DNA from: Paraspadella gotoi
Lineage: Eukaryota > Animalia > Chaetognatha
DNA: 64,000 nucleotides
NCBI GenBank assembly: GCA_051294375.1
Contig: CM119271.1
Location: 6,821,632-6,885,631 of the forward strand
Reading direction: 5' to 3'
The translations under genes were made by a program, and so were the position numbers. Positions 3,001 through 33,033 of this stretch are shown in pieces. Under the pieces are notes generated by a model that worked only from the letters and a program-made list of their open reading frames with translations, searched no databases and was not told the DNA's origin. Position 1 is the stretch's first letter. The number at the start of each line of letters is the position of its first letter.

Positions 3001-6000
3001 TCAGCCATTATAACCTACCTGTCATCCAGAACGATTTTTGTCCATTTAACAGCCATTCAAGTTCAATGGGAACATTGGGATCATGAGAAACTTTGCAATG
3101 AAACTCTACCGGTGTTGATATAATCACAGATGTGTTTGAAGGGGGACCTATGATAACGGTTCGTTCAGCGACTCTGTATTAAAAAAAAGCATATAAAAGT
3201 CATTGAGAATAAAAATATATTTTGATGCCGCAATGAAGTTTTCCACTGGAAAAAATTTTAATAATAAATATAATTATATAATATACAGTCCTGTGCAAAA
3301 AAAAAAGAGGACACTCTTCAAACATTAAATAGCGCTCGTTTTATGACACAATGAAAAATGGCGTAACGTTATGTTCCGTGCATAAAAAAAATTCACTGTT
3401 CAATATTATTATATTTCTTTTTATTTTTTGAAACGTTATAGTTTCATATGTCGATATCCAAAATATCAATGCAAAATCTTTTTTGTTTTTTAGAAATGAC
3501 CAAATATAGGGTGAAAGATAATAAATTTTTTTAAAAAGTTACTTATTCATATTTATTCCTAAAATTGTAATAGAAAAAAATAAAAAAAAATAATAGTACC
3601 AATAGTTGGTATTATGTCTCAAATAGATGGAAAAAAAACCTCATTTAAAAATTCGATCGGGAAGTGGGGTAACTAAGGCTTACCAATGGCATCCTCCACG
3701 CCGATTGTTCTCTCAAATAATTTTTTTATTTAATACATTTGAAAGGGAAAAAAAGAAAATTCAAAATTCAGGTTGTATAAAGGGTACAGATAATCTGGAC
3801 TTACTGACATGAAAACCATGACCTTATATATCTTGTGAAATGGGGGCAGTAAAGATATCTAAAAAATTCGATCATTAAGTCAGTCAATGAACCCTTTCTA
3901 ATGGGCTATTACGAAAAATATTTTTTCTTAATTAAAAGGATGATAAATAATAGAATTAAATTCCTTGCTATATTTAAAAGAAAATTATCAATACAATTTA
4001 ACTTTGTCAAATATATTGCCAGCTATATAATTTTTTAAAACTTTATTATGATAAACAAGCAGTGTGTCAAGCTTTTAGTTTGCAGTTAAAGATAATAAAA
4101 AATGCCGATTTTTTTTTCACAGACAAGAAGGTAGATGTCCAGACTGTTTATATCAAGCTGAAAACATTTTTGTATTTATCATTTTTGATATTTAAAAAAA
4201 CATTTTATCAAGCTACAACATAAATTTTTGCTTGTTTTTTACTTTAACTTAAAAATATAAGCAGTTTTATGGAATAAAGAAAATTTAATAATAATTAAAA
4301 TGTAATTCAGTCTTTCCTTTTTCAAATTACAAAAGAAAAATAAAAATTTCATATGCCTTCATTGAAATTTTTAAAGCAAAAAACTGTTATACTTTTAACT
4401 CTGATTTAAACAAAAGCTGTGTAAAGATTTATGGATTTAATTTAATAAAACTCTTTTAGAAAGTGTCCCATGATTAGGGCTTTAATTTGATACCACACCC
4501 ATCTTGCTAGCTCTTTTCTTTCAAAAGTTATTAAAAAAAATAACTTTTTTCAAACTACGCAGTACAAATCTTTGTTAAATAAAATTTTGGCAAAGCGGGG
4601 GTATCTCACTTATTTCTATTGATACAATACTTAAATTTTAAAATAAAACTTGAAGAAAATTTTTTTGTCATTTAGAGACATATCACTTCAGATGTACCCA
4701 TCTTATAATAATTTATTTATTTATTTCCCCAAAAAAAGCCTAATTAAAAAAGTTGAAATTTTTAAAAATTGTTGAAAAAAATTTCTCCGACCTATGCTCA
4801 TGAGAATAATGGTTTTGCATAGAAAATCAAATATCAAAAAAATAAAAAAATCAGCCTCTAGAAAAATCGAAAGGCGAGAGGCTGATTTTTTTAGAATTGC
4901 AAAATTTTTTTCCTAACTCGAAATCCATTATTCTCAAGTTTCAAAATATTTTTTTCTAAAATCATTCAATCAATTTTTTTTATTAATTTAAAATGTTTTT
5001 ATGATGTTGTTTTTGTTTGAAAGAATTGAAAAAAAGTGAAAAATATAGTAATTATATAAGGTTTTTGGAAATACCTCTAAAATATTAGATAATTAGACAC
5101 AAGGGGAGTAAGCAGAGAAAACTTCCCATTCATAAAAAAAATTGAAAATGAATTTGTCATATTGTTATTTAGATTAATTGACTAATTACAAACATATGAT
5201 TCATATAAATTGAGGAAATGATGGGTAAAAAATATTCATCTTGGTCTCGGTTAACTATTAGGTTATCGTTAAAGTTTTGTTTTAATAATATTAATTTTTT
5301 TTTTGCATTTATAAAAGCAATGGTCTAAAATTTTGTAAGCGTTTCGAGCTATATTGCTTCATATTTTTTACTATTTTTGATCTAGTTAGCTTTTTTGTTG
5401 ATGGTCAAGGTTATGGTCAGAAACAGTAATGTCCAGTAGTGTATATCGCACATATTACCAAAAGTAATAATCAATTAATTTGGCTCAGAAACAATTTTAA
5501 AGGGACAAAATCAGCACTAGACCGTAACGCCACGTTATTTTTCATTGTGTCGTATGCACATATACAATTATAAATGATAAATGTGGTTTTTACAATAAAA
5601 AATTCATGTGTAAGTTAAAAAAAAATCGGTCAAAGCATTCAAGAGCTGTAGCTTCTGAAAGACAAGTGGTCAAAAAAAACTATTTTTAAAAATATTTTTA
5701 ACCTTAATTTATGAACATTACATTTATTTTTTTAATTATGAATGGGAAATAAGGACTTAAAAAAAAAAACATGTGTAACTAGAAAAAAATTGTTCCAATC
5801 ATTCCTGAACTACAGCACCTTAAATATAAAAGGTTAAAAACCGAGTAATTACTTTTAATGGATTAACCAAATTTATACCAATAATTCTTTTTTTATAAAT
5901 GTTATTTATTTATAATATCTTTCATTTTAAAATAATTAATTTGATTTATTTTCATAATGTTTTTGGGTGTCCTTTTTATTTGCACAGGACTGTATAGCGG

Positions 6001-8008
6001 AAAATTATCTTACCTAACATGAGTACAGCCAATGTCTGAACCCAAGTTGTTGACAGCTCTGCAACAGTAACTTCCAGTGTGACTAAATGTTGCACGAGGT
6101 ATTATTAATCGCCCCGACTTTGAATCAATGGAGGCACCATCACTTTGAGATATCTGTAAAGATTGTGTTCAAAGATCAAGATAAATTCATTCAAGATAAG
6201 GTTGATCATCAATCGCACATTTTAGCTTAAAGTTAAAGATTTTTCTCACATTGAAAATAGAAAAAAAAACCCGATTTTTCAGAAGAAATGAAGAGTAAAA
6301 ATTTGTACCTGAACCCCATCTTTGGACCAAGATTTATCAGGGGAAGGCGCCCCGGTCGCGTTGCAATCCAACACTATTGAGTCCCCACTGATAACTGTGT
6401 TGTTCTTGGGCATGAGTTGAATAGCAGGTTCAACGGAAAGTACCTTTAATCAAATAAAAATTGACAGAGATGAAACCTCAGTTAATATTACAACGTTAGT
6501 CCAAAACCTCACCGTCAAAGCCGTGTGCATTGAAGCTGACCCCACCACATTATGGAAAATGCATTGGTAAACACCGGCGTCCCCTTCCCTGGCGTCAGCG
6601 ATGATGAGGCTATTGTTCGGCGTAAAATGTATCCGCGCCGTCGCATTAGCCGATTTCGGTATCGTCGCCGCATCCCTGTACCAGACGGGCGTTGGAGTTG
6701 GGGCTCCGTCAGCTTGGCATGGAAGTTCTATGCGGCTCCCGGCAAAAACTTCGGTCACTATCTGCGGAATGACATCCTTGAGAATTCGTGGTGCAAGGTG
6801 GACCGAGAGCGTAGCTGATTTGGAATCTGTTTCGCTGGTTATGCTCTGGTCCAAAATCTTCGCGAGGCAGGAGTAGACGCCGGCGTCGGCGGTGGAAACG
6901 GATTTGACCAACAAAATCCGTGGGTTAGTCAAGTCGTATTTGGAGTCAGTATTCAAAGGGGCACCGTCTTTCGACCAATGGTAGCGCAAAAGATTGAGAG
7001 GTTTGGCGTTGGCGACACAATCAAAACGTGCAGTTTCTCCCAGGGGCACAGCGGCGTCGCGGGGAACGATCACAATTTTGGGGGGAACGATGGCAGCGGA
7101 GTTGGGCGACAACTGGAGTCAAAGAAAACGAATAGTAGATAGTGCATTGTGCATTGTGAAAGGAACTGAGGAAAATAATACTTGAAAACACATGATCTTT
7201 GTCTGCCTATGTTTGAAATTTGTTAAACTTACACTTATCTTCCAAAATGGTGTATCCTTGAATACTTTGAGTGTGGGATTGCTTATCGTCGCTCTGATCA
7301 TCCTCCCTTCGTCACTTTGCTCCAAGTCTAGGAGAGCCAAAGAATTTCCACCAACGCCCAAAGCTCGGTCTCCCCCGTTGTCTGCAACTGTTCTCGGTGT
7401 CGTCGGGGAAGCCACCGAGTATTCCCGCCAAATAACGGTGGGTAAGGGTTGGCTGTCGACCATTAAATCCAAGCTTAACGACACAACCACGAATGAGCCT
7501 TTCGAAGACGTTCGCGTGACATTGATCGGCACGCCGCCGCCGACGGCCTCAATTTCTAGTCGGGCACGGACGAGGCTGACGCGAGGACCGACGACGCTCC
7601 CGAAGAGGTTCGACGCAACGCATTCATAATCGCCGTAGTCGCCGGAACCGACGGGATCTATCCGAAAGGCGCCGTTGGGATTTTTCGACGAAATGTAGCC
7701 CGCGCCTAGTTTGATCCATTGGAACTCGGGAAGTGGGTTGCCGGACGCCTCGCATTTTAAGGTCACGGCATCCCCAGGACGGATGTAGAGGACGCGAGGG
7801 GAAAATCGAGAAAATAGGGGTGGAGAACCGTAAGCTAATGAAAATAGAGAAAGAAATATGAATTAAAGCTAAGAAGGGAAGACGCAAAAACAAAAGAATT
7901 ATATAACGACTCACCTGATGACACGAAAATAATAAAAATAATGAAAATAAAAAGCCTCGGATTCAGTCTTTTCCTTCGGAACGGAAGGGAAAAATTTTCG
8001 AGCCTCAT
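1..8008 (-). CDS. sdk: Sidekick-like Ig/FN3 cell-adhesion protein (multi-exon; 3' part runs off the window start)
   Basis: ATG 8008 gives a signal peptide (MRLENFSLPFRRKRLNPRLFIFIIFIIFVSSAYG, phase-1 intron after 7915). Ig exons follow (VTLKCEASGNPLP...DYGDYECVASN; ARFDCVAN...DAGVYSC; IELPCQADGAPTP...DAGVYQC; DDKGEYTC). One long exon (2601 to <1) encodes FN3 repeats with Sidekick-like motifs (FDGNSPI, WNGVLRGY, VRTLEGTP, INGINQGYKV). Confidence 0.85.
3286..5992. mobile_element. Non-autonomous Tc1/mariner-like DNA transposon in a sidekick intron
   Basis: Terminal inverted repeats CAGTCCTGTGCAAA...AGGACAC (from 3286) and GTGTCCT...TTTGCACAGGACTG (to 5992), each flanked by TA. AT-rich interior with no transposase ORF. 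Confidence 0.8.
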
Positions 8009-8243
8009 TTTCGGATTTTGGCAGGATTGTGAATGTCACATAAGAAGCAAGACATGACGCGGCAATAATAAAACGATACTAAGAAGGCACGTTCGGTGTG
8101 GTTTTTAAGTTTCAAAAACTCATTGGTAGATAAGGACGCTTAAGGAGGTTGATTCTTAAGTAGATTGTCACCAGCCGAAGCCATCTATAAAAAAAAGTAT
8201 ATTATCAGTGAAAAAATTCAATAATTAACGGGAAAAAAACAAG

Positions 8244-11200
8244 TCATAACGTTTCCTTCAAAAGGGAAAGAAGATTTCCGAGTCGTTTTGACTCTGAACC
8301 CTTCTCGAGTTTTTCAATTTTAATTTTCAACTCTGCCTCGAAGCCAGTACAAGCGTTTTCCCGTCGGACAGAGATCAAGCAGGTAAGTGCGCTGAGAACA
8401 ATTGCGTCTCCACGAGCCGTATCCCCGAATTTGCGGTCGAGGAGACGAACGACGCGATCGTAGTTATCGCGTCTATCAACTCCGTCGATGACGGTTCGCA
8501 CGACGCTCGGTCCGCCAGAAACAAGGTTGCATAGTCCTCCGACGCCAAATTCCACCAGAGCCTCGTCGTCGGCGGAAAGCGCAGAGAAAAATATTTCAAA
8601 GGCGCCCTTATCTCTTCAAAAAGGGTTAGGGAGGAGGTTTTTGGAATCATGTCGCGACAGTTAATATCTAGAGTTTTTTTATTTTTAAGTACATATGCAA
8701 TTTCTTATTTTCTGAAGACGACATCGATGCAGTCGTCATCTTCCATCTCGTGACCGAGCGCAGTGGATCGGGGATCGATCGTTTCTCCGTCGAATCTAAA
8801 ACTCAGAGTGGAAGAATCCTCCACACCCAAGGCTGCCGCCGCTTCCGTCATCATCGTCTTCAAGGGATCCGAGGGTTTCACCCGCACCACGACGAACTGA
8901 CCGAGTTTGGAGTCGAGCGATTGGATTTTGAGATTTATGCGGTCGTCGCCCGAGATATTCTCTTCTCTTTCGTCGCCGCCCTCGCTCACATCGTCTCGAA
9001 TGACGACGCACTCGACGATGTCTGCGATGGTCAGTCGCAGTTCGGCCGGAGTATCTGTCTCTCGGACGTCGCGCCCGTCGGCCAACGTGAGCGCGATCCG
9101 TGCCACGTCGCACTTTTCCGTCTCTGCCATCGCGGCAAAGACCTTTGCGAAAGACTCGCTCTGTTCGAGAAGAACGCGTTGAACGCCCGACGCTGTACGC
9201 ACTTTCACGAGAATTGAGGACGAGGAGGCCTGGGATTCCCTCACGAGACTAGTATCTAAACATTCGACGAGGTCGCGCTGGTGGGCCGCCAACTGATCGC
9301 GCCACATGAGGTCGTTGTGCATCGATCGAAGCTCCTGAACGGCCTTCAGCCCCTTGTTGACCTTGGCCGAGCGACGGGGCTGCGTTGACTTGCGCTTCCT
9401 CCTTCCCCTGCCTGTCCCACGGCCATTCTCCTTAGACGCGATAGAAGCAGTGGCAGGGAACTGTGGCGGGGACGGTGATCGATTGGATCGAGAACGGGAG
9501 GGAACGTCGTCGTCGTCGTCGCTGGAACTAGAGGGTGGAATAAATATCGGGCGCGGTCTATTCTTTACGTTTTTTGTGGCATCGTCATCTATCCGGATGA
9601 CGTCTAAAGTCGTTTTTTTGGTTTTCAAAATGGCGCCAGACTGGATAGCTTGGTCTTTAGTGAGAAAGTCGCTGGAAAGGCTCGTCAAAGATCCCGAAGG
9701 AGCAGTCGCCAGCTCTCCGGATTCCTCGCCTGTGGCATCAGGAACGAGCTTTCGTCGCTTTCGGGACGGACGCGGAACGACGACCTCGTCGTCGGAAGAG
9801 TCGGACATCTTATCTTTGCTATTTCTGGCATTTATGAAAACACGGTAAATGGTAAACTAAATCCCCTCGCTTGAAGAAAGAAAAACATAAAATCGAAAAT
9901 AAAATTCAACAACAAAAAACTCAGTCGAAAAAGTCCAAAGTTTCGAAACCTTCAGGAAGATAAGTCTGTTTCTCGTCCTCGCCCTTCGAGCAATCGGGAT
10001 TATACGAGTAACCCTTTCCGTATCCCATTTCTCTCATCATCTTGGTCGAGGCATTCCGCAGATGCAATGGAACGGGTGGCAATGCCCCTTCGCCCGCTTG
10101 TCGTTCAATCTCTGCAAATGACGCGTTCATTGCTCGATAAACCTCCACTGATTTTCGTGCCCGAGCCAGATATACGGTGACCTGCGCTAAAATCACATCG
10201 CACTCTGGCATTCCAACAGCCATAACCGCCTGATGGGCCGCCGTAGCTTGAATCAGAGCTTGTGGATCACCAAGGCCGATGTCCTCCGAGGCGATACGAA
10301 TTAAACGTCGCGCGATGTAGCGGGGATCCTCGCCGCCTTTTAACATTCTCGTAAGCCAGTAAAGGGCGGCGCTGTCGTCGGAGCCGCGGATCGACTTGTG
10401 AAAGGCAGAGATCATCTGGTAATGTTGGTCGCCGTCGCGATCGTAAGCATAATGAGATTTTTGCAAGCTTTGCTTGATAAGATCGGCATCGATGCATGTG
10501 GCCGAATTTAACGGCGAAGTCAAAAATATTCGCACGGCCGTTTGAAGGCTGTTGAGAGCGACTCTTGCGTCGCCTCCGGAAAATCCCGCCAACGCATTGA
10601 GCGCATTTTCTTCAATGGCGACGCTTCCTTCATCATTTACCTTCTCACCCGATTCCCGTAAAATCTTCAGTCTCAAATATTCGGCCCCTCGTTCCAATAT
10701 TTTGGTCACGTTCTCCGTCGAAAGGGCATCCAGCGCCACGACGCGGCTTCGACTGAGCAGCGCCGAGTTAAGGCTGAAAGAGGGATTTTCGGTCGTGGCG
10801 CCAAAGAGAACGATGGTCCCGTCCTCGACAATTGGCAGGAAAGCGTCTTGTTGGTTCTTGGCAAAGCGATGTATCTCGTCCATAAACAGCAACGTGCGAC
10901 GCTTAAACATCTTGAGCTCATTTCGTGCCACTTCCGACTGCCTCTTGACTTCGGCTACGCCAACCTGGCAGGCGGAGAGGGAGACGAAACGGTAGGGAGA
11001 TTTTTTATCGCCGGCGTAAGCTTTTGCGATAATCTTGGCAATCGTGGTCTTGCCGCAACCCGGTGGTCCCCAAAAGATTATAGAAGGAAGAGGGGCTTTC
11101 GAGGTGACGAGAGCCTTCAGCCAAGCAATATCAGCTTTTCGGCATTGACTTACTTTATTCTCACCAACTGCTGAATCTTGGCCAAAGAGTTTATCCATGG

Positions 11201-12340
11201 TCTGAGGTCTCAAAATCTGAGCCAATGGAAGGGAATTCTCTTTAAGAGCGTCCGCGGTTTTCCTCATCGTGGATTCCGATTTTCGCTCCTGCGTCACAGA
11301 CGAGTTCGATCCCTTTCTGCCTTTCCGCCGGGAGGCACTTTTAAAATTTTCCGAGTCGCTTCTCAACTCCTCGGACTCGGGTTTCTCGACAGCTTGACCC
11401 CGTGACGGAACAGCTGTTTCATCGGCTTGACTCTTTTTCTCGTGTGCTTCTTCTTCCGATTCAGACCAATCAAAAGCCAATGAGGCGTTAATTCCGGCGT
11501 CTTTTACCTCGACTTCATCGGGGGCGTCGTCTTCATCGTCCTCAAGAAAATTCTCCTTGTCTCTTTTGAGCTTTTGTTTCGTCTTGGAACCGCGACTCAA
11601 ACTTCGAGACTTGCCCACAGCTTTGGCGGTTTTTGCTCGTGGACTTCGAAGACCTAATCCGGACCAGGCCGCCACTTGGTCTTCCTTCTTTACACGTTTA
11701 GCGCTTTCATTAATCGCCGATGCTTCGCCGATTTCTTCATAACGAGCAGCCTCCCCCTCCGCCAATCGCTTGCTCCGAAAAGTCTTTCTCGAGGGACGTT
11801 CTTCCTGCGAGGCCAAACATTTGTCCAAGTGCTGGGAGACTTTAGCCTCGGTCTTAAAGGAAAGGTGACAAACCGGACACGGAAAGCTGGTATCGGACAT
11901 CTTCCAGTTGGGAATGAGTTCTACTTAGTCATAACGTAGGAAAAAATAATTTATTAGAGTTTTGAGAGAAAAAATGCTCATAAGTGTAAGCCTAACACAA
12001 TAACGTTCAACAACTATTTTTCACCCTTTTCATTTAATTCAGCTTTAAATTGTATGTATGAAAAAAAAATCAATGGTGCTCATAAAAAGGACGTACTTCT
12101 CTTTTACATTAATTGATCACTTTGAGCGAGTTCAAAGATAACGACATGATCCCAAAACCTCAAATAGAAAAAATTGATAGGGTCGTAGGCAAAGTTGGCC
12201 AAATTTGCCAAAACTTGCTGTTTGTCGATAAGCGATGTGCTTTCGTCGTTGTACTCATCGATCAGCATTTTGATGAATGACTCTCTGCCGATTCCGTGCT
12301 GACCAGTTTTTTTGTCCAGGTACTCTTGTTTGCTAAACAT
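8244..12340 (-). CDS. ARMC7: Armadillo repeat-containing protein 7, two exons (12340-12159 and 8613-8244) joined across a 3545-nt intron
   Basis: Exon 1 ends ...KQQVLANLANFAYDPINFFYLR at AG|GTTTTGG. Exon 2 follows CCCTAAC...TTTTTGAAG| and continues in phase 2: DKGAFEIFFSALSADDEALVEFGVGGLCNL...IVLSALTCL. This is colinear with human ARMC7 as I recall it (QVLANLANFAYDP..YLR..ETLVEFAIGGLCNL..VLSAITTL). Confidence 0.88.
8705..9808 (-). CDS. NFATC2IP: NFATC2IP/Rad60/Esc2 (RENi) tandem SUMO-like domain protein, intronless, nested in the ARMC7 intron
   Basis: 367-aa ORF with a low-complexity acidic/basic N-terminus and two C-terminal SUMO-like domains (DTPAELRLTIADIVECV; LSFRFDGETIDP...MEDDDCIDV). 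Confidence 0.85.
   Translation of the reverse strand: MSDSSDDEVVVPRPSRKRRKLVPDATGEESGELATAPSGSLTSLSSDFLTKDQAIQSGAILKTKKTTLDVIRIDDDATKNVKNRPRPIFIPPSSSSDDDDDVPSRSRSNRSPSPPQFPATASIASKENGRGTGRGRRKRKSTQPRRSAKVNKGLKAVQELRSMHNDLMWRDQLAAHQRDLVECLDTSLVRESQASSSSILVKVRTASGVQRVLLEQSESFAKVFAAMAETEKCDVARIALTLADGRDVRETDTPAELRLTIADIVECVVIRDDVSEGGDEREENISGDDRINLKIQSLDSKLGQFVVVRVKPSDPLKTMMTEAAAALGVEDSSTLSFRFDGETIDPRSTALGHEMEDDDCIDVVFRK
9921..11900 (-). CDS. WRNIP1: WRNIP1/Mgs1 AAA+ ATPase, intronless, nested in the ARMC7 intron
   Basis: 659-aa ORF with an N-terminal UBZ finger (CPVC...HLDKC), Walker A WGPPGCGKTT, Walker B FMDEIHRF, ATTENPSF, and an MgsA C-terminus (ISAFHKSIRGSD, ASEDIG, VPLHLRNA). Confidence 0.96.
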   Translation of the reverse strand: MSDTSFPCPVCHLSFKTEAKVSQHLDKCLASQEERPSRKTFRSKRLAEGEAARYEEIGEASAINESAKRVKKEDQVAAWSGLGLRSPRAKTAKAVGKSRSLSRGSKTKQKLKRDKENFLEDDEDDAPDEVEVKDAGINASLAFDWSESEEEAHEKKSQADETAVPSRGQAVEKPESEELRSDSENFKSASRRKGRKGSNSSVTQERKSESTMRKTADALKENSLPLAQILRPQTMDKLFGQDSAVGENKVSQCRKADIAWLKALVTSKAPLPSIIFWGPPGCGKTTIAKIIAKAYAGDKKSPYRFVSLSACQVGVAEVKRQSEVARNELKMFKRRTLLFMDEIHRFAKNQQDAFLPIVEDGTIVLFGATTENPSFSLNSALLSRSRVVALDALSTENVTKILERGAEYLRLKILRESGEKVNDEGSVAIEENALNALAGFSGGDARVALNSLQTAVRIFLTSPLNSATCIDADLIKQSLQKSHYAYDRDGDQHYQMISAFHKSIRGSDDSAALYWLTRMLKGGEDPRYIARRLIRIASEDIGLGDPQALIQATAAHQAVMAVGMPECDVILAQVTVYLARARKSVEVYRAMNASFAEIERQAGEGALPPVPLHLRNASTKMMREMGYGKGYSYNPDCSKGEDEKQTYLPEGFETLDFFD

Positions 12341-12447
12341 CTAATGAACGTAAATAAGAACGAATTAAAAGTTTTAAAAATAAAGTAAAACGGTAAAAAA
12401 TTCGACTAGAAATGCAAAGACAACACGGTACAATAGCTTCCAGAGGT

Positions 12448-15400
12448 TCACTGGGATCTGGCAATGTCGGAAAAAAAATCCAAGAGGTCTTGAATGGTAA
12501 AGTTGAGCGTGATCATCGAGCCCGGGTAGCATTTGTTGATGAGTTCTTCGAAATGTTTGTATTGATTCAAGAATTCCAACTGCATTGAGTGCCAAACGGT
12601 TTGATTCAAGTTCTCCTCCTCGCATAGATGCTTCTCGACTTTTTTGTAAAGCAGCTCGATGTTCTTTTTTACGTCTTTTTTCGGATATTCATCGATTACC
12701 TTTCGCAGTTCTTGCCTGTTTAAATGCAAACGAAATGGGATTAATTCGGTGAGTTTCATGACCAATGTAAATAATAAATGCAGTTAGACTGTCGCGCGTC
12801 ACCTTGAAAAGGCCATCTGGTAACCAATCTCCTCCATCTTGACCCCTTGGGCGACTTTGGATTGAATTCCTTCGAAAAAATAATTTAATTTCTCCAATGG
12901 ACGTCCCAATTGCATGGTCACATAAGTATTCAGATGCTCTGTATATTTCGCCTTAGCGTTCTTTCGTTGCTCCTCCAGACATGGAATCTTGAAAAAAGAG
13001 AAGAAAAATATAATTTGCTTTTGAATTGAAAAAATAATGAAAGGGAAAAACTCGACCAATTTATGTACTTTAAATCTGGCGAGGAGGTCGTACATGTGAT
13101 GATAATTTTCCATCATAACGACGTCCTTGGGGTTTTTCTGCTGCTCGGCCGCGCATCGAAGAATGTTGTTAAAAATAGTTCCAACGATGCGAGTGTAGGC
13201 TTTGTCCAAATCGGTCTTTCTTTCCGAACCTGGACCGAGCGAGAAAAAAGTTGCAGTTTAAACATTTAAAATGACAGACTGGAAAAACCAATCGCTTAAC
13301 AAAGAAGCAACCTTGGAAATAAACGAGCCATTCCTTTGGAATGAAAAGGACAAAAGTATTCTAAAAAAAATCCTATTACGTTTTTACCTGTTTACATACA
13401 TAGCAAGAAAACTATAAAAATAATAAATAAATAAATAACTAACTGCAACTAAACTGCAATTCTTCCTGATATTAATTGAAATAAGTTCGCGGAGAAACTT
13501 ACAGCCAATCCTCGGTTGCCTTGTCTTGGATAAACATTTATCTGTTTAACGAAAAATGATACATTCTTACGCAAAGAAGCAATTTAAGGCATCTGCTAGT
13601 AATTGTATATCGCCTAACGTAAAATATCAAACCTTTAAAGATTGTCTCAGCCTCGGAAACGAATTCTTCGAAACTGGCGACAAATGGCAGAATCCCACAT
13701 CTTTTGTTCTTGGCGACGCGGCAATCCTCGATGGATTTGAGGTGAAGATTGACGAGTTGATCGAAGTTGCGCTTCGCCTGTCGAGCGACAATTGATATTG
13801 TTTTCATCTAGCTAAATTTTTAAATTTCTAAATTTCTACTCTTCAATTCTCAACATACATGCACAACACAACATGTCAGGAACAAACTTGTGGAATCTCG
13901 ATTGGAACTTTGTGGAAATCCGTATAAACATTTGTGGATTTAATTCATTCATTGATTGTCTTATTTAATTAAAGATTCATAGATTATTCATTCTTTCGTC
14001 AAGACCAACCAACCTGAATTAAACATGATCCGAAGGTGATTCCCAAAAACGATCCAGATTGGGAGAATGGGCGGATGTGACTCGCTCGCTCATCCTGACC
14101 TAAAAGCCATTAATTTTATAAACGAGAGAAGAAAATAAATAAAATTAATAAAATTAATTACCAAAGCGTAAAGCGAGTTGTAACCGTCGATGGAGTGACC
14201 CTGGTTGAGGAATGACATCAGCTCGATTTCGAGGTTGGGGAAAAGAGCCTCCAGAATGCGTTTGAGCGGATTGTTCTTCAGCTGCCAAAACTCAACAACC
14301 TTGGCCAACGTCGCAGCCTCCATGTCGTTTTCTTTGGGCTCAACGGAATCCGGCGGATCACTATAAACAAGGTATTTCATGAAATTGGTACAACCAATAT
14401 AAAAATATATACCGTATCTTGCCCCTGACTATTTTGACAACTTCTTTATCATTACAACTGCAGTGCAAAAAATGTAACCCCCATATAAGATAACTATAGC
14501 TCTTTCAAAAAACTATTGATTGAAACCAAAAATATAAATTGATTTAGCAGCAGAATTAAGCAATTCTTTTAAATCTAAACTGATGCTCACAATATAGAAT
14601 TGATATAATGATAATGTAATTAACATATATAAAAGGGTTAGAAATAAATCTGCTTTACCTTTTAAAACAAAAAAAAAAAAAAAAAAAAAAAAAATTTAAT
14701 TGCTGCCAAAAATTAATTAATTATTAATTATTAATTTTAAAAATTAATAATGAAAACAATCATTTTTTAAATTAAATTAAAATCAAAATAATTTTATAAT
14801 AAAATATAAAACAATTCATTTATTGTGTATTGATTGTGACATTATGTTGAATCAACACTGTTCTTGTGTATCACTGTATCGAATTCTTGATATGAAATAA
14901 AATAAATATATATATATATATTACTCTGCTTAAACACGAAATGACTTCAGGAAAAAATTTAAAAGTCAAAAACTTTTGAAAGTAACCTAGGGCAAGTTAT
15001 CACTTTGATGAGCTTAACTGTTTAACTTAACTGTTTTTTTAATTTTTAAGAGAACTTTTCCTTACAGGTTCAATTATTTTAATTTGATTTTGTTTAAAAA
15101 TCGTTGACATGACACACACTGAATATGCTCAGCCAATTTAATATTATAAACATTTTATAATAAATAAAAGTTTTAAACTTTTTTAACTAAAACTAATTTT
15201 TTATCTTCATATTTTTTATACCAATCGACTTGGACGTGCTATAACTTTAGAACGCTTGGCTAAATTTTAATGGAACTTGGACCAATCGCTTCATATTTCA
15301 ATAAGCTTTGTTTTATTTTTCTATATCCTTAAAGTTCAGCCATCCAATACCGATTTGTTACTTTTTACTTTTTTTTGCGTCGAAGTGAATTTATAAACGC

Positions 15401-17684
15401 GACTTACTTCAAATGAAAAAACTTTGTGCAAAAGTCCTGCTCTTGCTTGCAAAATGGCTCCAGTTCGTTAAGAACTTTTTCCAGAACTCGATCGAAAGAT
15501 CCGCGTCCTGCTGGATCACCGAAGCTTCGACCGCCGGACTCAGAAGACGAAGTGGGCGACACAGGAGACATTTTATTTAAGCTGCTCGATGAACCGTCGA
15601 GGCCTCTGAACGAAAAACCGTATCGTCAACTTCCACAGCTGCACACTTAGTGCACAGTTAGATCGAAAACTTCTCATCAAACAGAGAAAAATCGCGTACC
15701 TGGAAATATTTCCAGGAGCTAGACGATTGCTTGCAGAGATTGAGGCGCCGGAAGCAAAGCCAAGTCCCAAACTGTTCTTCGCTCGCTCGAAAAAGTCGTT
15801 AATTTGCTTTTCGTAAACTTTGCTGATACTTGAAATGTAAACCTTATAAGTTCCTTCGAAGCGCTTCATGTCAACTTGTTTCAGCCAAAACATCAAATCA
15901 CAGTAATCCAGTAGTTCTTTGTGAGCGGATCGATGCGAGGGGATCTTTAACTCTTGGGCGTGATAACTTAGCGTACCTTAAAGATAAGATCGAAAGAGTA
16001 CTTTCTTAAATCATAAATCAGACTGACTAAAGAAATGTTACTTTTTTAACATTACCGGTAACGGACAATTCGTTTCCTTGTTGAATGAATTTGCTCGTGA
16101 TGAATTTAACGAATCGATTTTGAAAGACTTGACTCAATTTTTCTAATTTCTTCTTTTGATCTTGAACCGCTTTCATTTGGCTAAGACCTGACGACCAAAT
16201 AAATAAATTTAATAATCGATAATATCATAGATAATCGAGACAAATGAGTGAAAGTGAGCGGACTCAAACCCGGATGCAACGAGGAGGCCATTGCCGCTCG
16301 AAGGCTCACGGCAGCAACAGAGCACTGGTGAATGCCGTCGGGCTTATCGAGGGCGCCGTCGGTGAGCGCGGCCTCGTGAGTCTTGCTGAACTCCAGCTGG
16401 TCGACGACCTCTTGCAGGGTGGACATAAGTGACTCCATGTTAACGTTAACCGTCTGCAAACTCCCGTCTCGCTCCTCCATTGCTTCCATGTAGTCGCGAA
16501 CGGTCTGCAACTGGCGGTCGTAACAATCGAGGTTCTCTTCGATGGAAGTAGCGTGGGCCAAAGCACTTAAGGGTGAAAGCGCTATTTATTAAGTACGTTA
16601 TAGATTGCATATTTTATTTCTGCCATTTTCAAAACTACCCACTTGTCCAGTAAAGACATCAGATCGGCGACAGCGGCTTCAGAAGCCAACAAAGAATGAA
16701 TCTGGGCCTCTTCCAAGACGCCCAAGTCTCCTTGGAGGCGTTGCAGAAAGAGCTCCGCGTTGCTGACGGCAGATTCGCATTCGGACATCAGCGTTTCTAG
16801 ATCCTCGGCTTCGCTGGGCGTGATAGCCTAGAGATATTTTACAAAAAAATAAAGCAAAGCTCAAAAGTTGGGTGAACCGTTTGAAGGTAATAAGCAATTA
16901 CTTGATATTCGGCCCCTTGTTGAAGATTAACAGGAAGACCGTCCACATCGCTCTCGTTCTCGTTCGAGCCGATGTCATCTCCACCGGCGCTGTCGGGCGT
17001 CGCTCCCGGAATCGCGCTTGCCGAAGAGATCACTCCACGATTCACTTCGTCTTGTAATCTCAAGGGAAAAAAGTCAAACCGTTAAAAATTTAAACATAGT
17101 GAGAAACTTTAAGACTTCCACCTCGATCGTCTCTCACCTTTGCGAGATGTGAAGAAATTGTGGCTTTTGCCGCGTCAAATAGCGATTGCAAAGCTTGATG
17201 ATGGAAAATATGAATTCGTCCTTTTCCTTGGGCGACGAGGCGACCCATTTGAACAGCTTGTCGAACTGCAGGTCAAATTCGCCCTTGTCCGAGTCTTTGG
17301 CATCCACACAACGAAGCTCTCGCAGTCCCCAGCTCGTTTTCTTTTTATAGCTGTCGCCCCGTTCCGCTTTTTTTATCTGGATAAATACAGTTAGTAGTTA
17401 ACGGTAGTTACAGTAGTTGAAAACGTAAAAGCGAGAATAAGATGTAAAAAAGACATTTTCGAGTCAGGCTTAGAAGAAATTCTCAAAATCTTCTGTGAAT
17501 TCTCCGTGAAGTCACGTCAGACCTGGTGAATCTGAACAGCAGCGGGTTGCTCCGTCGTGACGGTAATACAGAGTAAAGATACTTTTCGACGACGACCGAA
17601 TTTGGTGACGTGGACGACACCGTGTAGACGTTCGTCGTGGGGGGAAAAGACTTCACGTTGAAGAGTGTGTCGAATCGCCGCCAT
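12448..17684 (-). CDS. EXOC1: Exocyst complex component 1 (Sec3), multi-exon
   Basis: Start [20 protein letters not shown]. Internal exons include [20 protein letters not shown] and [14 protein letters not shown]. The C-terminus [15 protein letters not shown]...[27 protein letters not shown] is typical of Sec3. Confidence 0.95.
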
Positions 17685-17809
17685 TGTTTTGCGGCTTTTT
17701 GTTTTTCTTATCAATAATTTACTAAAACGAGAACGAGAATAAGCTAAGAATCAAATGTGAGAAACGAGCATTGAAACCATGTTGATAGTTAAATAAAGAC
17801 GTCACCCAA

Positions 17810-20800
17810 CTCAACCGTGCAAAGTTCCGACCAAAAGTTTTTCAACCCGAAATGACGTTAAGTACCGATTTGTCTGCTCAAGGGCTATTAATCGCACCAA
17901 ATTCGATACTTGAAAAAACGCCACGGGGTGGATCAAAAGCGCCAAAGTCACGTGACTTCCGGTTATCTCCAATTTTTTTGGTTTCGTTGATTTTTTTTTA
18001 AAAGACAAAAATTTAAAGATGAAAATAGTTAAAATAGTAAGAATAGATAGTAATATAAAGAAAAAACAATATAAAATATTTAATTGGTAAAAAATAATTA
18101 GAAAAAACCTAATATAAAGTCAATGTTACACGATAATAATGAAAGAAATTACCGTTTGTTAGCTATTGTTTTTAGTTTTATCCACCTAGCGAGTTATACA
18201 GAATTTTAATTTGATTTTATAGAAATTTATTTAATTTGAATGTAAATTTGATTTTATATCTATATTCTTATAACAGGCACAGTCCAATATGAATAGTAGA
18301 AAACCGATATCAGCTGATTTTGGAATTGGCACCGCTATTGACAATTTTCCGTCCCCTCCATGCCAGCCACACAAGGGGAAAGCAGTGATTGAACGTTTAC
18401 ATGGAGTGTATAACTCTGCCAGAGAGATTTTAGCAAAGCAAAAACGCAAGTCGCTCAGGAACTGATGATACTGTGGCGAAAAGGTGACGAAACGATTCCA
18501 CTTCAGTGCAAATTGAAAATTGATAAATTCCGTGAAGATTTCAAAGTCGTCCGAAAAAAGTGCTGAAAAGTCGTCCGAAATATACAATTGCAGTAAGTTT
18601 CAGTATTTTTGAATATCTCAAGAAAACTTAATAAAAGTATTAAAATTTTTTTAGCATAAATCGTTTATGTCGACGGAGGGATTCATATTTTTGACATCTC
18701 CGCTGAGGACGCTATTGATATCGTTCTCCATGACTTAACAAAATCCAAGAAAGACCGAGAAGAGGACGCCGAATTTCTACGGCGCTTACGCCGAAATGAT
18801 CATGTTGCATTCGGCAATTTTGATATCAAGCGGCTCGAGAGATTTAAACGAGCTGCAAAGCGTCATTTGGAGCACCCAAGCAAGAGATGGAAAAGAAGCA
18901 AAGCGTAAACAGGTATATGATTCTAGCATACAAGCACATAGCAGTAAATTGTGATAATTTTTACTTTAAATGTCATACTAATTGGTAATTCATAAAGGAT
19001 GACAATGCGACTGTTTCGTCAGAGATCATTTGCGATATTGACCCTCCATCTGTCGCTAAAGATACTGATCCTACCTGGCAACCAATAGACAAAAAAAGAG
19101 CTAACTTCCAGAGGAAATAAACATCGTTTTAAAGAAAAAGAGCTGGATCAAACCTGCAATCCATGCGCCGATCGAGCTGGCGTGTCTACGGACAGTCTTT
19201 TCCATATTCTCCTGCGCTTTGCTCTCATCGGCAATGGTGTCGAACTAAAGGATGTCAAAATTTCACCTTCACTTATTAATGAGTTGCGACGGGAAGTTCA
19301 TTTGGAAACTGCAACATCGGTCAAAGTAATAATCAGATAATAGAAATTTATTGACTATTAAAAATAATAATTGACTTGTTAATAATAACACATATTACAA
19401 ATTTTTTTGTAGGAAAATTTCCAATTTCCACCTTTCCTGCAAATACATTTCGACGGAAAAAAACGACAAGATCCAATTACTGGCGAATTCAAAGAATATA
19501 TTTCTGTTGTCATTACTGGACCCGGCATGGTATCTGAAAAGTTTCTCTTAGATGCACCAACTGAGGCAGGAACAGGATTTTTATCGCAGAAACTGTTTTC
19601 AAAGCAATCGTTGACTGGGATTTGGTTTCTCGCGTTGTTAGTTTTTCTTTTGATACTTGTTCGGTGAATACCGGAATACACGGAGGTATGAAAAAGTAAA
19701 TTAAAAAATGGGTCTAATAAAATCAAATTTGATTAAAATATACTTTATAGCCGCGTGCATGCATATTGAAAGAATGTTAGGGAAACCTGTAATTTGGATG
19801 CCGTGCATGCATCACATTTTGGAAGTCATTGCTTCATCATTTATCCAAGTTCGCTGGAAAACCTCCGGACCCAAGATTCCATTTATAAGCGCTTCAAAGC
19901 TTCATGGCCACTTATTCTAAAGCGAATGGACGAAATTGTTGAAAAGGCTCATGAAAAAGTTTCCCTTTTGACTCCAGAAGACGACGTGACTCGACGACTT
20001 CACAAATTTGTAACAAGTATTTTTACAACTCATTGGTTCCTCTTCAGTTTTAATTTGTTTGGCCTCGTCAACGTCCTCAGCCTCGTCTAATACAGAAGCC
20101 ACTCGGAGAGTGGAAGTATTATCGAGGAGATTATTTAGAGTTTATCAAACTTGTTAAGGTAAACTTTGCAGTCTTGAAAGTCAAATTAAAATAATTATAT
20201 TTTTATTTCATATATGTTTTTTTCCCCCGATCTCTTTGTCGTGATCAAAGGATTGGTAATTAAAAAAAATGTTAACATCCTTTTTAAGTAGTCTATACAG
20301 TAGCTTAGCCTTAGAATAGACTAGACTCAGAGCTTGATAAGAGTTTTTATACTTTATTCTGGCATACAACAATGTACAGTAGATCAAACTGAGTAAAAAA
20401 GGGTACATTTTTATCATTAATTTTCTTAGTTTTTGACTGGAAATACGCAAATCATCAAAATGGCACAACGAACTGTCTGCTACCCACCACGCGAGGTGGA
20501 TGGGAAACCTATTGTACATTTTGAAAATGCTTTTGTGTCAAGGTCCTGAATTTAAGCTCAGCCCAACCAACAACAAGATATCATTGCGATGAGCTTTTAT
20601 ATTGTAATATATCCACTTTCCGTACTGGTAAAAAAATATTAAAAGAACTGCAAACATTGTAAGAATAATTATTTTTTAATCGTGATTTATAGGTTTGTTT
20701 TGGCAAAACTGCTGACGCTCCGGTGTTGACGCTTCAACTGCATCGAGATTTGGAAGACTGGAAGTCTCGTGATTCAGCTGGGGCACGAGCGGCCATTCGT

Positions 20801-29582: not shown

Positions 29583-30910
29583 TTATTTGATTCCGGCCAT
29601 TCTGACGGAAGGGGCGGTGACAAGTCCCTTGCCCTCGATCTTAAAAAAGGAGCCCTTGAAGGTGGCGACCCCTTCGGCGTTGACGAGGAATTCGGGCTGA
29701 ATCGCCTCGAAGATCTTTTTTTTAGGATTGATGAAAGGGAGATCGGGTTCGCCCTCGTAGCCGTCGAAAGAGATCTTATCGCCGACGATCGCCCCCGCGG
29801 GCGGAACCAAGATCTCCACCTTGTCAGGCGTGTTCGCGCACATTATCATTCCTCGATAGAAAAAAGACGTATGTATTTACTACAAATCTGAAAATCTTTA
29901 ATTCAACTAAACCTTACCTTCGGACAGAACGCCCCTCATTTTGGCGGGTTTGAGGTTGAGTAAAAATACGGCGACTCTGCCGCGCATTTCCTCGAGGGGC
30001 ACATGCTTGACCAAACCACTCACGATCGTTCGCAGTTTTTCTTCTCCCACGTCAACCTTTTCCACGTAGAGCGAATCCGCACCGGGGTGTTTCTCCACCT
30101 AAATGAACTTAAAATTTTTAAAACATATTGTTGACAATTGAACCGAAAAACCCTGATAAACTCTCGTGCCTCCATGATTTTGCCGATTCTCATATTGAGC
30201 CGAGAAACGTCGACGGGTTTTTCCGGCTCCGCATCGCCGTCGCCTTGCTCCACTTTTCCGGCTTTCTTCTCTTTTTTCGGTTTTTCTTTGGCTTTATTTT
30301 CCGGCGATGCCGGGACGGGTGATGACAAGTCAGTCGCAGGTTCGGACGCTTTTGGAAATGAAAGGAAAGGATTGGGGTGAAAGAACAGTTTAAAGAAAGC
30401 ACGGGTGAAGGCGGATCTCTTTTTCTTAAATACCCTTGGGTTTGGGTGACGCTTTTTTCGATGGCTTCATCTTTTCGCTGTCCGGGATAACATTAGATGG
30501 AGCTGCAGTTGGCGAAGTGATCGGCACCTGCTTGATGCCATGGCTTATCTCGACGGCAATAAGGTCATTTTTTAGAGTTTGAACCTGGAAGGAATCGCTC
30601 ATAACTTCAATATCATCCGTTACCATCGTGTCGTGTTTATGATAAAATGATATAGAATAAAGTTTGAAGAGAGATTTAACAACGATTTTTATTTCATAGT
30701 GAAACGGACATGTTTCGACTCACATACGAGTCTTCTTCAGCGCCAATTCAATTTGTGAATTTTAAGAGAATTTTGTGCATAAAGAAAGAGAGAGAGAGAG
30801 AGAGACAGAGCAAAGTTTCCAACACAGAGTTTGGGAGAAAGGATAGTGTTCAGTTTTTTTATTAGGGACAGGTGAAGGTGAGGACAGAGATAGTTTGTGA
30901 AAAGAAATTG

Positions 30911-30975
<65 letters not shown>

Positions 30976-33033
30976 CAGTGATTGAAAATATAATACATTA
31001 TGAAATGTACAACAATGTTAAAATTTGGTAAACTTTAATAATGAATAATATCAACAATTAGCTACAGTAATAAATTAGCTGAAGTGCCTACCGCGCCCAC
31101 CACAGCACACCTGGAAGATAAGCAGAAGCGCCCAAAGAACGTAGGTCACTTGTCCCTCCCCTACCACCAGGGGATCACTGAGTCATTGGTGCGGGTGCTA
31201 GCAAAGCAGGGGATCTTCACCTCAGTGACGGCCCACGGCTCTCTGCGTGAGCTATTGGTGAAACCGAAAGATAAAATCCCCAGACCGAAAACATCAGGAG
31301 CCGTCTATTGGGCGGCCTGTGCAGGGGCGGGCAACCAAGCCTGCACAGCAGCATATGTGGGCGAGACAGGAAAGTCTAACTGACCGCTTCCAGCAGCATA
31401 CGAGACCCTATCGCCACTACCTATCTGCTATAGCCGAACACACGGCTAATACTGGCCATCTATTCAGAGAATCAGACTGTCTCATGCTGTCCCAGGACCC
31501 AAGCTGGTTCTCAAGAGGTATTAGAGAGGCAATCTACATCAAAGCCCTCGAGCCCTCTTTGAACCGTGATGGAGGACGATTCAATCTCCCTCCAAGCTAT
31601 GATTCGCTTATCAAAAGCGTGGTGGAGGCCCCGTCTCCACCACGTCCGCACAATGATTCCCCCATCTCCACTCAACAAAATAGGCGGAGACCCTTGCGCA
31701 GGCAATGGGCAGACGATACCTCTCCTTCAACTGCAGCAACTCATTCCCTTCCTCTGTGGACTGAGCACCGCCCAAAGCGACGGCTGCAGGAGGAAGGGGG
31801 GGGAGGCCACCACTCCTGTCGCGAAAGTGGCAAGAATGGACAGCCGCCCACCTTGCCAGCCGGCAAGAAGAGGGCAGTCGGCAGGTGTACCAGGCCAGAG
31901 AGATATCCGAGTAGCATTTGGTTTCTTCCCGCAAGGAAGTCTTCCCAACTCTGCACAAGTAGGCTCCACCAACCTGTCCTCTCAGCCAATGACACACCAA
32001 TGACCCGACCTTATCAATCTAGCCTTTCATTTGTTCATAACCAAGGGGGGCGAGCTCATTTTGAGCTCTTTCTTATTACTTGAAATTTCCCTTTTCCTAA
32101 TTACTTAGTTATCCCTCACTAACAATAAATATTTCACATTTCTGAATTTCTTTTTCATTTCACTAATTTATTACTGTAGCTAATTGTTGATATTATTCAT
32201 TATTAAAGTTTACCAAATTTTAACATTGTTGTACATTTCATAATGTATTATATTTTCAAGCACTGTCTCTCTCTCTCTCTCTCTCCATTTCAATTTCTTT
32301 TCACAAACTATCTCTGTCCTCACCTTCACCTGTCCCTAATAAAAAACTGAACACTATCTTTTCTCTCAAACTCTGTGTTGGAAACTTTGCTCTCTCTCTC
32401 TCTCTCTCTTTCTTTATGCACAAAATTCTCTTCAAATTCACAAATTGAATTGGCGCAGAAGAATACTCGTATGTGAGTCGAAACATGTCCGTTTCACTAT
32501 GAAATAAAAATCGTTGTTAAATCTCTCTTCAAACTTTGTTCTAACCCAAATCACAACGAAACAGAGGAAAAAACACGATAAAATGATAAAATTGCAAAAT
32601 TCCCAAGTGCTTCTCTATTTTAAGTTTTAGATTTTATAATATTAATTAAAATTACTTATTGCAAATTCTTTATTTTTTATTTTTATTATTATTTTTTACA
32701 AATTTTTGTTTTGGATAATATAAATCTGAAAATATTATATTATTATTTTCTTCTGGAAATAGAGGGAGCATCTATAAAACAAGGTTATATTACTTCCGGC
32801 CCTAGTTTTCGAAATAGATATCACACATCAGTCACACATCAGTCAGCTGGTTTTATAAAACAGACCTGTTCCTGAAGCCTCATGGTTTCTTGGCTTGCAA
32901 ATTCCTTCTCTTGTTCCGCTTTGTATGATAGAACATTGTCCAGAAAGTGTAAATCCTTTTGCAAAGTTCTCAGAAGGTTTTCTGCTTTCAAAGTTCGACT
33001 TTGAAATATTTTCAAGAGTTCTTTCGAAGACAT
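29583..33033 (-). CDS. AIMP1: AIMP1/p43 (EMAP-II tRNA-binding domain), multi-exon; intron 1 carries a Penelope-like element
   Basis: N-terminal coiled-coil exon (33033-~32866), then [17 protein letters not shown], a Lys-rich linker, [56 protein letters not shown]. Confidence 0.9.
30703..30744 (-). ncRNA. Minimal type I hammerhead ribozyme motif in the left pseudo-LTR (intact core)
   Basis: Minus strand reads GGCG-CTGAAGA-A-GACTC-GTATGT-GAGTC-GAAA-CATGTC-CGTT: CUGANGA and GAAA core, 5-bp stem II, palindromic ACATGT, GUC cleavage triplet, short stem I. Confidence 0.75.
30916..30976. repeat. (GA)n microsatellite within the pseudo-LTR
   Basis: Long GA run. A shorter GA run lies at 30788-30809 and the mirror TC runs at 32265-32285 and 32390-32410. 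Confidence 0.95.
32452..32493 (+). ncRNA. Second hammerhead copy with a mutated core (probably inactive)
   Basis: GGCG-CAGAAGA-A-TACTC-GTATGT-GAGTC-GAAACATGTC-CGTT: CTGA changed to CAGA, plus a stem II mismatch. Confidence 0.6.

Follow-up and report, generated by a model that had tools for sequence, protein, structure and literature searches.

The closest described counterparts of the locus reported here are genes carried in separate pieces or enclosing other genes. The split introns of Giardia comprise two coding halves with a GT donor, a branch/AG acceptor and extended pairing between the halves, together with a 3'-end signal located downstream of the 5' arm (PMC5224939); a fission model has been described for them (PMC6679479). 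In C. elegans, an animal with spliced-leader operons, the split gene eri-6/7 is rejoined by repeat pairing and trans-splicing (10.1101/2024.01.15.575659), and in the sDscam genes of mites a short intronic pairing of docking site and selector, shown by compensatory mutation, drives both cis- and trans-splicing (PMC9258826). In the terminase genes of mirusviruses and alloherpesviruses, other genes part the two halves, which are spliced together at canonical sites (PMC12768974). Whole genes lying within a host intron and in the direction of their host are known in animals (PMC2330155, PMC11694760), a glass sponge among them (PMC10282587), and same-strand nesting is by itself ordinary. In chaetognaths, trans-splicing affects about half of all genes and operons account for 18% of all genes (PMC12460157); these operons are made up of same-strand genes less than 250 nt apart with housekeeping functions and are resolved by spliced leaders (PMC12460157, PMC2481426); the leaders listed in PMC2481426 carry no ATG. 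Here we analyze a stretch of 64,000 nt (the window) from the chaetognath Paraspadella gotoi (contig CM119271.1, positions 6,821,632 to 6,885,631), in which the gene ARMC7 is divided by two whole genes of the same strand, WRNIP1 and NFATC2IP, and in which the two ends of the dividing stretch are complementary to each other. All coordinates are those of the window, and the genes of the locus lie on its minus strand.

The locus departs from each of these systems. The Giardia halves are far apart and separately transcribed, whereas those of ARMC7 are collinear, 3.5 kb apart and likely to share one operon transcript; in addition, the predicted helix here overlaps the donor, and the splice is one predicted from the sequence. 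The pieces of eri-6/7 occupy opposite strands and pair through direct repeats of approximately 930 bp derived from a Polinton, in contrast to the single strand, the 20-bp pairing and the two intervening housekeeping genes found here. Pairing in sDscam is intronic, does not cover the donor and serves alternative exon choice in a paralogous cluster with no nested unrelated genes, while the mirusvirus terminase halves are viral, some 30 kb apart or on opposite strands, with no operon processing and no pairing described in the accessible part of that source (PMC12768974). Nested animal genes sit mostly in long introns, whereas here the two genes take up 87% of the gap, the spacers resemble those of operons and the ends are complementary. 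We tentatively interpret the arrangement as a helix-bridged, discontinuous intron of the Giardia kind inside an operon, a reading that we regard as a serious possibility falling a little short of probable.

ARMC7 halves and their proposed join

The elements on which this interpretation rests are the following.

12159 to 12340, minus strand: ARMC7 exon 1, codons 1-60 plus 2 nt, with an AG abutting the ATG (homology and splice-site analysis)
8244 to 8613, minus strand: ARMC7 exon 2, from the rest of codon 61 to the stop, 122 further codons (homology and open frame)
12142 to 12161, minus strand: 5' arm of the predicted helix, spanning donor positions -3 to +17 (self-comparison and folding)
8634 to 8654, minus strand: 3' arm of the predicted helix, complementary to 12161-12142 (self-comparison and folding)
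8614 to 8633, minus strand: branch-like CCCTAAC (8631-8625), short pyrimidine run and acceptor AG (8615-8614), from the sequence

An earlier, sequence-only reading of this DNA had proposed that the ARMC7 open reading frame (ORF) at 12340 loses similarity after ...FYLR, that the missing half lies 3.5 kb downstream at 8613-8244 and that joining GT 12158 to AG 8614 restores the frame, and all three proposals stand. The exon 1 ORF (ATG at 12340) matches human ARMC7 (PDB 7dvq_K) over residues 10-53, with similarity stopping at ...FYL, and the ORF 8615-8244 matches residues 58-85 of the same chain, starting at its own residue 5. Both halves match the family in register: joining 12159 to 8613 sets residues 61-65 exactly onto residues 54-58 of the human protein and yields an open protein of 183 amino acids. 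Of the 23 in-frame pairs enumerated (GT/GC-AG or AT-AC), 8 were compared by means of a profile built from 65 full-length ARMC7 homologues, and this join ranked highest (142 bits, versus 135 for the runner-up), with exon 2 alone contributing 39 bits over profile positions 73-177. The alternative donors at 12145, 12142 and 12107 were discarded as lower both on the profile and on U1 pairing.

Exon 2 can be used only by splicing, because it offers no ATG in its frame and a TGA of that frame sits just ahead of the acceptor AG (8615-8614); its separate translation is ruled out by the missing ATG. Its 122-codon frame was open in 43 of 20,000 base shuffles, it retains family-conserved columns (15 of 28) through to the C-terminal end, and the sole single-nucleotide polymorphism (SNP) listed in it is synonymous. 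The coding halves are accompanied by donor and branch/acceptor signals, as in split introns, although the donor (GT 12158-12157, context GTTTTG) is weak. A U12-type intron was rejected: the donor reads GTTTTGGG, and RTATCCTT, which we take to be the U12 consensus, is absent from the minus strand of the window. Searches of the window revealed no second ARMC7 piece and no Rfam match, and neither half of ARMC7 has a match in Pfam. The split arrangement of ARMC7 is confirmed, and a real join of its halves is, in our judgment, quite probable.

The named matches of exon 1 are bilaterian ARMC7 proteins, and the best of its 174 matches (P0055, 79 amino acids on a 624-bp contig, 69% identity) shares the one-residue insertion of the window exon 1 and is placed as its sister at 88 in a tree that is weak, having been drawn by a quick method from 60 columns of 124 of the 184 N-halves. 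P0055 departs from the ARMC7 family directly after YLR, with a residue that would suit a GT donor of identical phase; by inspection, none of the other short homologues listed breaks at the YLR codon in a GT-compatible way, and several break about 8 codons later. The resemblance of the P0055 tail to the 5' arm is weak (129 of 5000 shuffles were as good). Three full-length ARMC7 proteins (P0235, P0236 and P0237) group nearest to the window exon 1, while their C-halves are no closer; one of the three is an uninterrupted ORF on a 40-kb contig, which may show the unsplit state in a related lineage. Among longer proteins, 35 of 57 exon 1 matches were significant, none of them close in both halves, and none of the 78 candidates of the exon 2 protein search reached significance. 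A metagenome scan for the locus gave 1 spurious ABC-F match in 518 stretches.

Predicted pairing between the ends of the gap

The inverted repeat at the two intron ends was missed by the earlier reading. Its arms (12161-12142 and 8654-8634) form 20 pairs with one bulge and one G-U, and the 3' arm stops 3 nt ahead of the branch-like CCCTAAC. The duplex energy is -33.2 kcal/mol, a strength that no dinucleotide shuffle of either side attained (0 of 3000, means of approximately -14.5), and among 12,769 sequence segments on both strands none pairs better with the donor than the 3' arm does, the runner-up reaching -30.1. A second haplotype, present in sequencing runs X8 and X9, lacks the bulged base 8638 and carries a change at 8653; its duplex, at -31.0 kcal/mol, was again unmatched in 3000 shuffles, and its changes are tolerant and not compensatory. 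When the two pieces were folded as separate molecules, pair probability was 0.99-1.0 over 12 consecutive pairs, with a gain of about -19 kcal/mol, a folding prediction in which a 20-bp duplex is enough to hold separate pieces. The helix appears also in the minimum-energy fold of the entire 3641-nt precursor. As a control, 8 of 9 introns verified by RNA show no such pairing of their ends (z from -1.3 to +1.3), and the ninth, an AT-rich intron of 62 nt, has a z of -3.5 at just -9.7 kcal/mol. The two intron halves thus present the extended complementarity that is seen in split introns.

The last EXOC1 codons (12450-12480, minus strand) can also pair with the 5' arm at -26.8 kcal/mol and might compete in an uncut precursor, although this is probably chance. 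An origin of the arms as terminal inverted repeats of a transposon was considered and rejected, the 3' arm lying 20 nt inside the intron and no target-site duplication flanking the arms. In the DNA runs the arms show flat depth, a measure that copies elsewhere shorter than about 30 nt would escape.

Locus organization and probable operon context

From upstream to downstream on the minus strand the locus consists of EXOC1, ARMC7 exon 1, WRNIP1, NFATC2IP, ARMC7 exon 2 and an Ig-domain gene, with the following further features.

17949 to 17962, minus strand: CCGGAAG / CACGTG site resembling a promoter, ahead of EXOC1 and a candidate promoter of the operon (motif scan)
12448 to 17704, minus strand: EXOC1 (Sec3), upstream cistron, its stop 107 nt ahead of the ARMC7 ATG
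11950 to 11955, minus strand: AATAAA in the spacer, putative 3' end of the exon 1 piece
11921 to 11940, minus strand: pyrimidine tract with AGs at 11925-11924 and 11922-11921, candidate WRNIP1 leader acceptor (from sequence)
9921 to 11900, minus strand: WRNIP1/MgsA-type AAA+ ATPase, 659 amino acids, intronless and intact (Pfam MgsA_C, AAA_assoc_2, AAA)
9870 to 9890, minus strand: pyrimidine tract ending in CAAG at 9870, candidate NFATC2IP leader acceptor (from sequence)
8705 to 9808, minus strand: NFATC2IP/Rad60-type SUMO-like-domain protein, 367 amino acids, intronless and intact (Pfam Rad60-SLD)
8678 to 8683, minus strand: AATAAA, candidate poly(A) signal, 22 nt past the NFATC2IP stop and 24 nt ahead of the 3' arm
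6450 to 8186, minus strand: Ig-domain gene continuing leftwards, likely start ATG 8008

The names WRNIP1 and NFATC2IP are our assignment from the Pfam domain layout and from what we presume of those proteins. Both genes are intact and together occupy 87% of the 3545-nt gap, and the NFATC2IP stop lies 91 nt from the acceptor, in agreement with the nearly filled intron and the distance of some 90 nt reported earlier. Whole genes of the same strand thus lie between two exons of a host whose splice is predicted. Listed SNPs are mostly synonymous in both (3 of 4 in WRNIP1, 9 of 13 in NFATC2IP). A further AG sits immediately before the WRNIP1 ATG, and an acceptor-like T-run AG at 8186-8185, 58 nt past the ARMC7 stop, precedes the Ig-domain gene; directly after it there is a short upstream ORF (8184-8134, minus strand). 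The premise that nested genes are mostly antisense to their host holds as a bias, but a moderate one, given 75 parallel versus 152 antiparallel human pairs (PMC2330155, Table 2).

The spacers measure 107, 258 (donor to WRNIP1), 112, 91 and 58 nt, all but the 258-nt one being below the 250 nt that mark same-strand operon genes. The CCGGAAG and CACGTG pair, which we take to be ETS/E-box-like, occurs between 7900 and 18100 only upstream of EXOC1, and no promoter-like motif of this type is present in the 258-nt spacer, a motif scan being a weak test in both cases. The earlier interpretation is supported in part: its picture of an operon within an intron fits the spacers, the promoter-like site at EXOC1, the unbroken RNA described below and the chaetognath host, but no leader was seen.

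DNA and RNA contigs

The contigs used come from runs X4, X5 and X8 (DNA) and X9 (RNA) of three studies; X1, which may be the source, was not counted, and X9 is taken as an RNA run because its contigs show splice joints. At each gene boundary there are bridging or overlapping contigs, those of the DNA runs X4, X5 and X8 among them, and all give one and the same gene order, although none spans the whole stretch. X9 displays 10 GT-AG joints in EXOC1 and the Ig-domain gene, and the verified introns span 62-273 nt. One X9 contig is continuous from 12146 to 7915, across the inner genes and exon 2, and proceeds through spliced Ig exons. No X9 contig covers 12147-12443, which a filter and the heterozygous sites 12442-12443 and 12371 can explain and which was not used as evidence. 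No ARMC7 paralogue aligning at 80% was found in X8 or X9, and related species (X10, X11) align at that level to EXOC1, WRNIP1 and NFATC2IP, but not to ARMC7. Two side observations concern EXOC1: a small exon (approximately 13502-13541) is both included and skipped in X9 (region 13226-13633), and a high-copy repeat in an intron (13873-14001) exceeds 10 times the background depth in X1 and X4.

Proposed mechanism

In the mechanism that we favor, a single transcript would start at the EXOC1 promoter, and leader trans-splicing together with 3'-end cleavage would free WRNIP1 and NFATC2IP, leaving an exon 1 piece and an exon 2 piece. The AATAAA motifs (11955 and 8683) are situated within the stretch that the arms enclose, so that cleavage would leave the two arms whole or almost whole, and the arms could then pair and tether one piece to the other. 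The weak donor would be ignored by the nearer WRNIP1 and NFATC2IP acceptors and handed only to the acceptor that bears an arm, and the spliceosome would join the halves at 12159/8613, likely often after removal of the inner genes, which would make the intron discontinuous. Products of joining the donor to the WRNIP1 or NFATC2IP acceptor are out of frame (stops at codons 131 and 102). A strong donor would fall to one of these acceptors, an outcome that a weak donor with pairing avoids. As the 3' arm is transcribed after two candidate acceptors and two candidate poly(A) signals (11955 and 8683), the gap has probably been cut by the time the arms meet. Given a real join, we lean somewhat toward this discontinuous route over one through an intact 3.5-kb lariat.

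The U1 register at a donor starts at -3. The helix starts at -3 as well, which suggests that the arm may stand in for U1 at the donor, speculatively in the way that the stems of spliced-leader RNAs are thought to do. By extension, exon 1 could act as a private spliced leader and the exon 2 piece could carry a U1-like guide to capture the weak donor, with the ARMC7, WRNIP1 and NFATC2IP mRNAs arising from a single polycistronic transcript through two kinds of trans-splicing, an idea that we put forward as doubtful. The sequence-only reading had reasoned that one pre-mRNA must choose between splicing ARMC7 and processing the nested cistrons, or else that the nested mRNAs mature from the excised intron. 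Beside these two candidate routes the helix offers another, which that reading did not consider: once the inner cistrons have been excised, the halves can keep their pairing or acquire it, so that no choice between ARMC7 and the inner genes is needed.

Alternative explanations

Several observations weigh against a helix-bridged discontinuous intron, and chief among them is the lack of the 12159/8613 joint among the contigs of X9, the sole RNA run of the species, so that of the join foreseen earlier the frame and register are confirmed and the junction contig is not. One X9 contig runs through the acceptor unspliced. Since contigs lose rare forms and one contig does not equal one transcript, the missing junction does not decide the matter. 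At none of the gene starts did the listed loose ends of contigs contain a spliced leader, and the unbroken RNA over the spacers implies that precursors persist and that cis-splicing is feasible. AATAAA is common locally (8 matches in 10 kb) and absent after WRNIP1. Donor-U1 pairing amounts to -4.2 kcal/mol, weaker than at 8 of 9 RNA-verified donors, and the helix buries this donor and could block splicing instead of promoting it. With the helix formed, some 20 nt between the sites stay single-stranded, far below the shortest verified intron of 62 nt, and the helix must consequently open before catalysis. The change at 8653 breaks one pair, with no compensating change in X8, and if position is ignored the helix ranks 7th of 106 inverted matches in the window, for which reason its weight lies in its placement. 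Finally, exon 2 is divergent, with 23% mean identity to 85 homologues (mean 31%; 2 are lower) and 15 of 28 conserved columns retained versus 26 of 31 in exon 1, and no full-length protein close to both halves was found.

The same observations must be set against other explanations. The one nearest to the earlier view is helix-aided cis-splicing, in which the intact 3.5-kb intron is looped out, each transcript yielding either ARMC7 (from a minority escaping inner processing) or the inner mRNAs, which might also mature from the lariat. This is unlikely, though a credible contender. In its favor, the predicted fold of the entire precursor includes the helix, the RNA contig is continuous over all inner spacers, an intron of 3.5 kb would need such help where verified introns measure 62-273 nt, and diplomonads provide known cases of long cis introns that pairing shortens (PMC6679479). 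Against it, no junction contig was found, and the intron would have to outlast two acceptors and two candidate poly(A) sites until transcription reaches the 3' arm. A disruption of ARMC7, with a two-gene block inserted, the repeat a relic of transposon ends, the halves decaying and a copy elsewhere or a loss of minor splicing covering for them, would account for the missing junction and for an exon 2 that is among the most divergent of 85 homologues; transposon-derived inverted repeats underlie eri-6/7 (10.1101/2024.01.15.575659), and the search for a second copy covered the 64,000 nt of the window. We nevertheless hold it improbable, in view of two frames that are intact and in register, the presence of GT, branch-like motif and AG, a 3' arm ending 20 nt inside the intron, arms flanked by no target-site duplication and showing neither raised depth nor repeat-like loose ends in four DNA runs, the break of P0055 at the same codon with 69% identity, and the absence of an ARMC7 paralogue at 80% in X8 or X9. 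Ordinary same-strand nesting, with WRNIP1 and NFATC2IP driven by their own promoter in the 258-nt spacer and ARMC7 cis-spliced normally, seems to us quite improbable. Parallel nesting is not rare (75 human pairs, PMC2330155), orientations of nested genes have been found near-even (PMC11694760), no other spacer of the locus is as long as that ahead of WRNIP1 and an X9 contig starts at 12146, a start that the filter and heterozygous sites can explain; on the other hand, the spacer lacks an EXOC1-type promoter motif (a weak point), the 112- and 91-nt spacers and the read-through RNA into exon 2 suit an operon, and the helix over the donor is left unexplained.

The helix might instead be a repressor that hides the donor (it covers positions -3 to +6), sending most transcripts along the operon route and allowing ARMC7 only when open, possibly as feedback on the minor spliceosome, of which ARMC7 is a protein (7dvq). 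The unspliced acceptor RNA and the missing junction contig agree with this, as does CCCTAAC, 12 nt from the AG, which we take to resemble a U12 branch site. However, there is no U12 5' consensus at the donor or elsewhere on that strand of the window, and a repressor arm next to the branch point cannot form until the right acceptor has been made, so that we give this explanation a very slim chance. A misassembly of the locus has next to no probability: no single contig covers the entire stretch, but contigs from three studies, bridging or overlapping, agree on the gene order at every boundary, and the arms match across the gap.

Other features of the window

One further gene is worth describing.

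62578 to 63600, minus strand: nuclear ATP synthase subunit a (ATP6), intronless, with a long N-terminal extension (protein search)

Among its 54 matches, 9 are the same long form, at 63-80% identity, followed by animal mitochondrial ATP6. Chaetognath mitogenomes lack atp6 (PMC5470650), and the intronless nuclear gene is likely to represent a transfer from mitochondrion to nucleus. Ctenophore mitogenomes are not known to carry atp6 either, but the named matches of ARMC7 exon 1 are bilaterian, so that the window itself points to a chaetognath as the likely host.

All Pfam-matched ORFs tested in the window are on the minus strand, and between 43570 and 52709 (minus strand) very long intronless ORFs, encoding a fused/ULK-type kinase of 1361 amino acids and an exportin-5 of 1208, lie near intron-rich genes. 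Several repeats were also noted. A 39-nt inverted repeat (17910-17948/21621-21659) spans 3.7 kb with no clear genes, one arm adjoining the EXOC1 promoter-like site; it is a candidate for transposon ends or a duplicated promoter element, and was rejected on inspection as a second split gene. Long inverted repeats at 30653-32543 surround a plus-strand ORF (31262-32083) that presumably resembles the end of a Penelope-type retroelement and has no Pfam match, and nested inverted repeats in an AT-rich stretch (3267-3376, 5123-5161 and 5520-6011) likely represent a non-autonomous DNA transposon.

Implications

Neither a split or nested chaetognath cistron nor paired intron ends around same-strand operon genes occur in the accessible literature, outside of which most subscription papers fall; in PMC12460157, 'nested' has no match in the main text and the gene names of the ARMC7 locus are absent from the readable supplements. 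If a helix-bridged discontinuous intron is indeed what parts ARMC7, it would amount to genic trans-splicing in chaetognaths and would provide a way for operons to let genes interleave. Leader-dependent operons could interleave with a single gene, with a 20-bp helix setting which acceptor a donor uses, in a host gene that is itself a minor-spliceosome factor. For annotation, split genes such as ARMC7 look like two fragments or a loss. The finding would bear on the choice between cis- and trans-splicing within one transcript and on the origin of split introns, since the loop-fragmentation model for Giardia would become testable in an animal.

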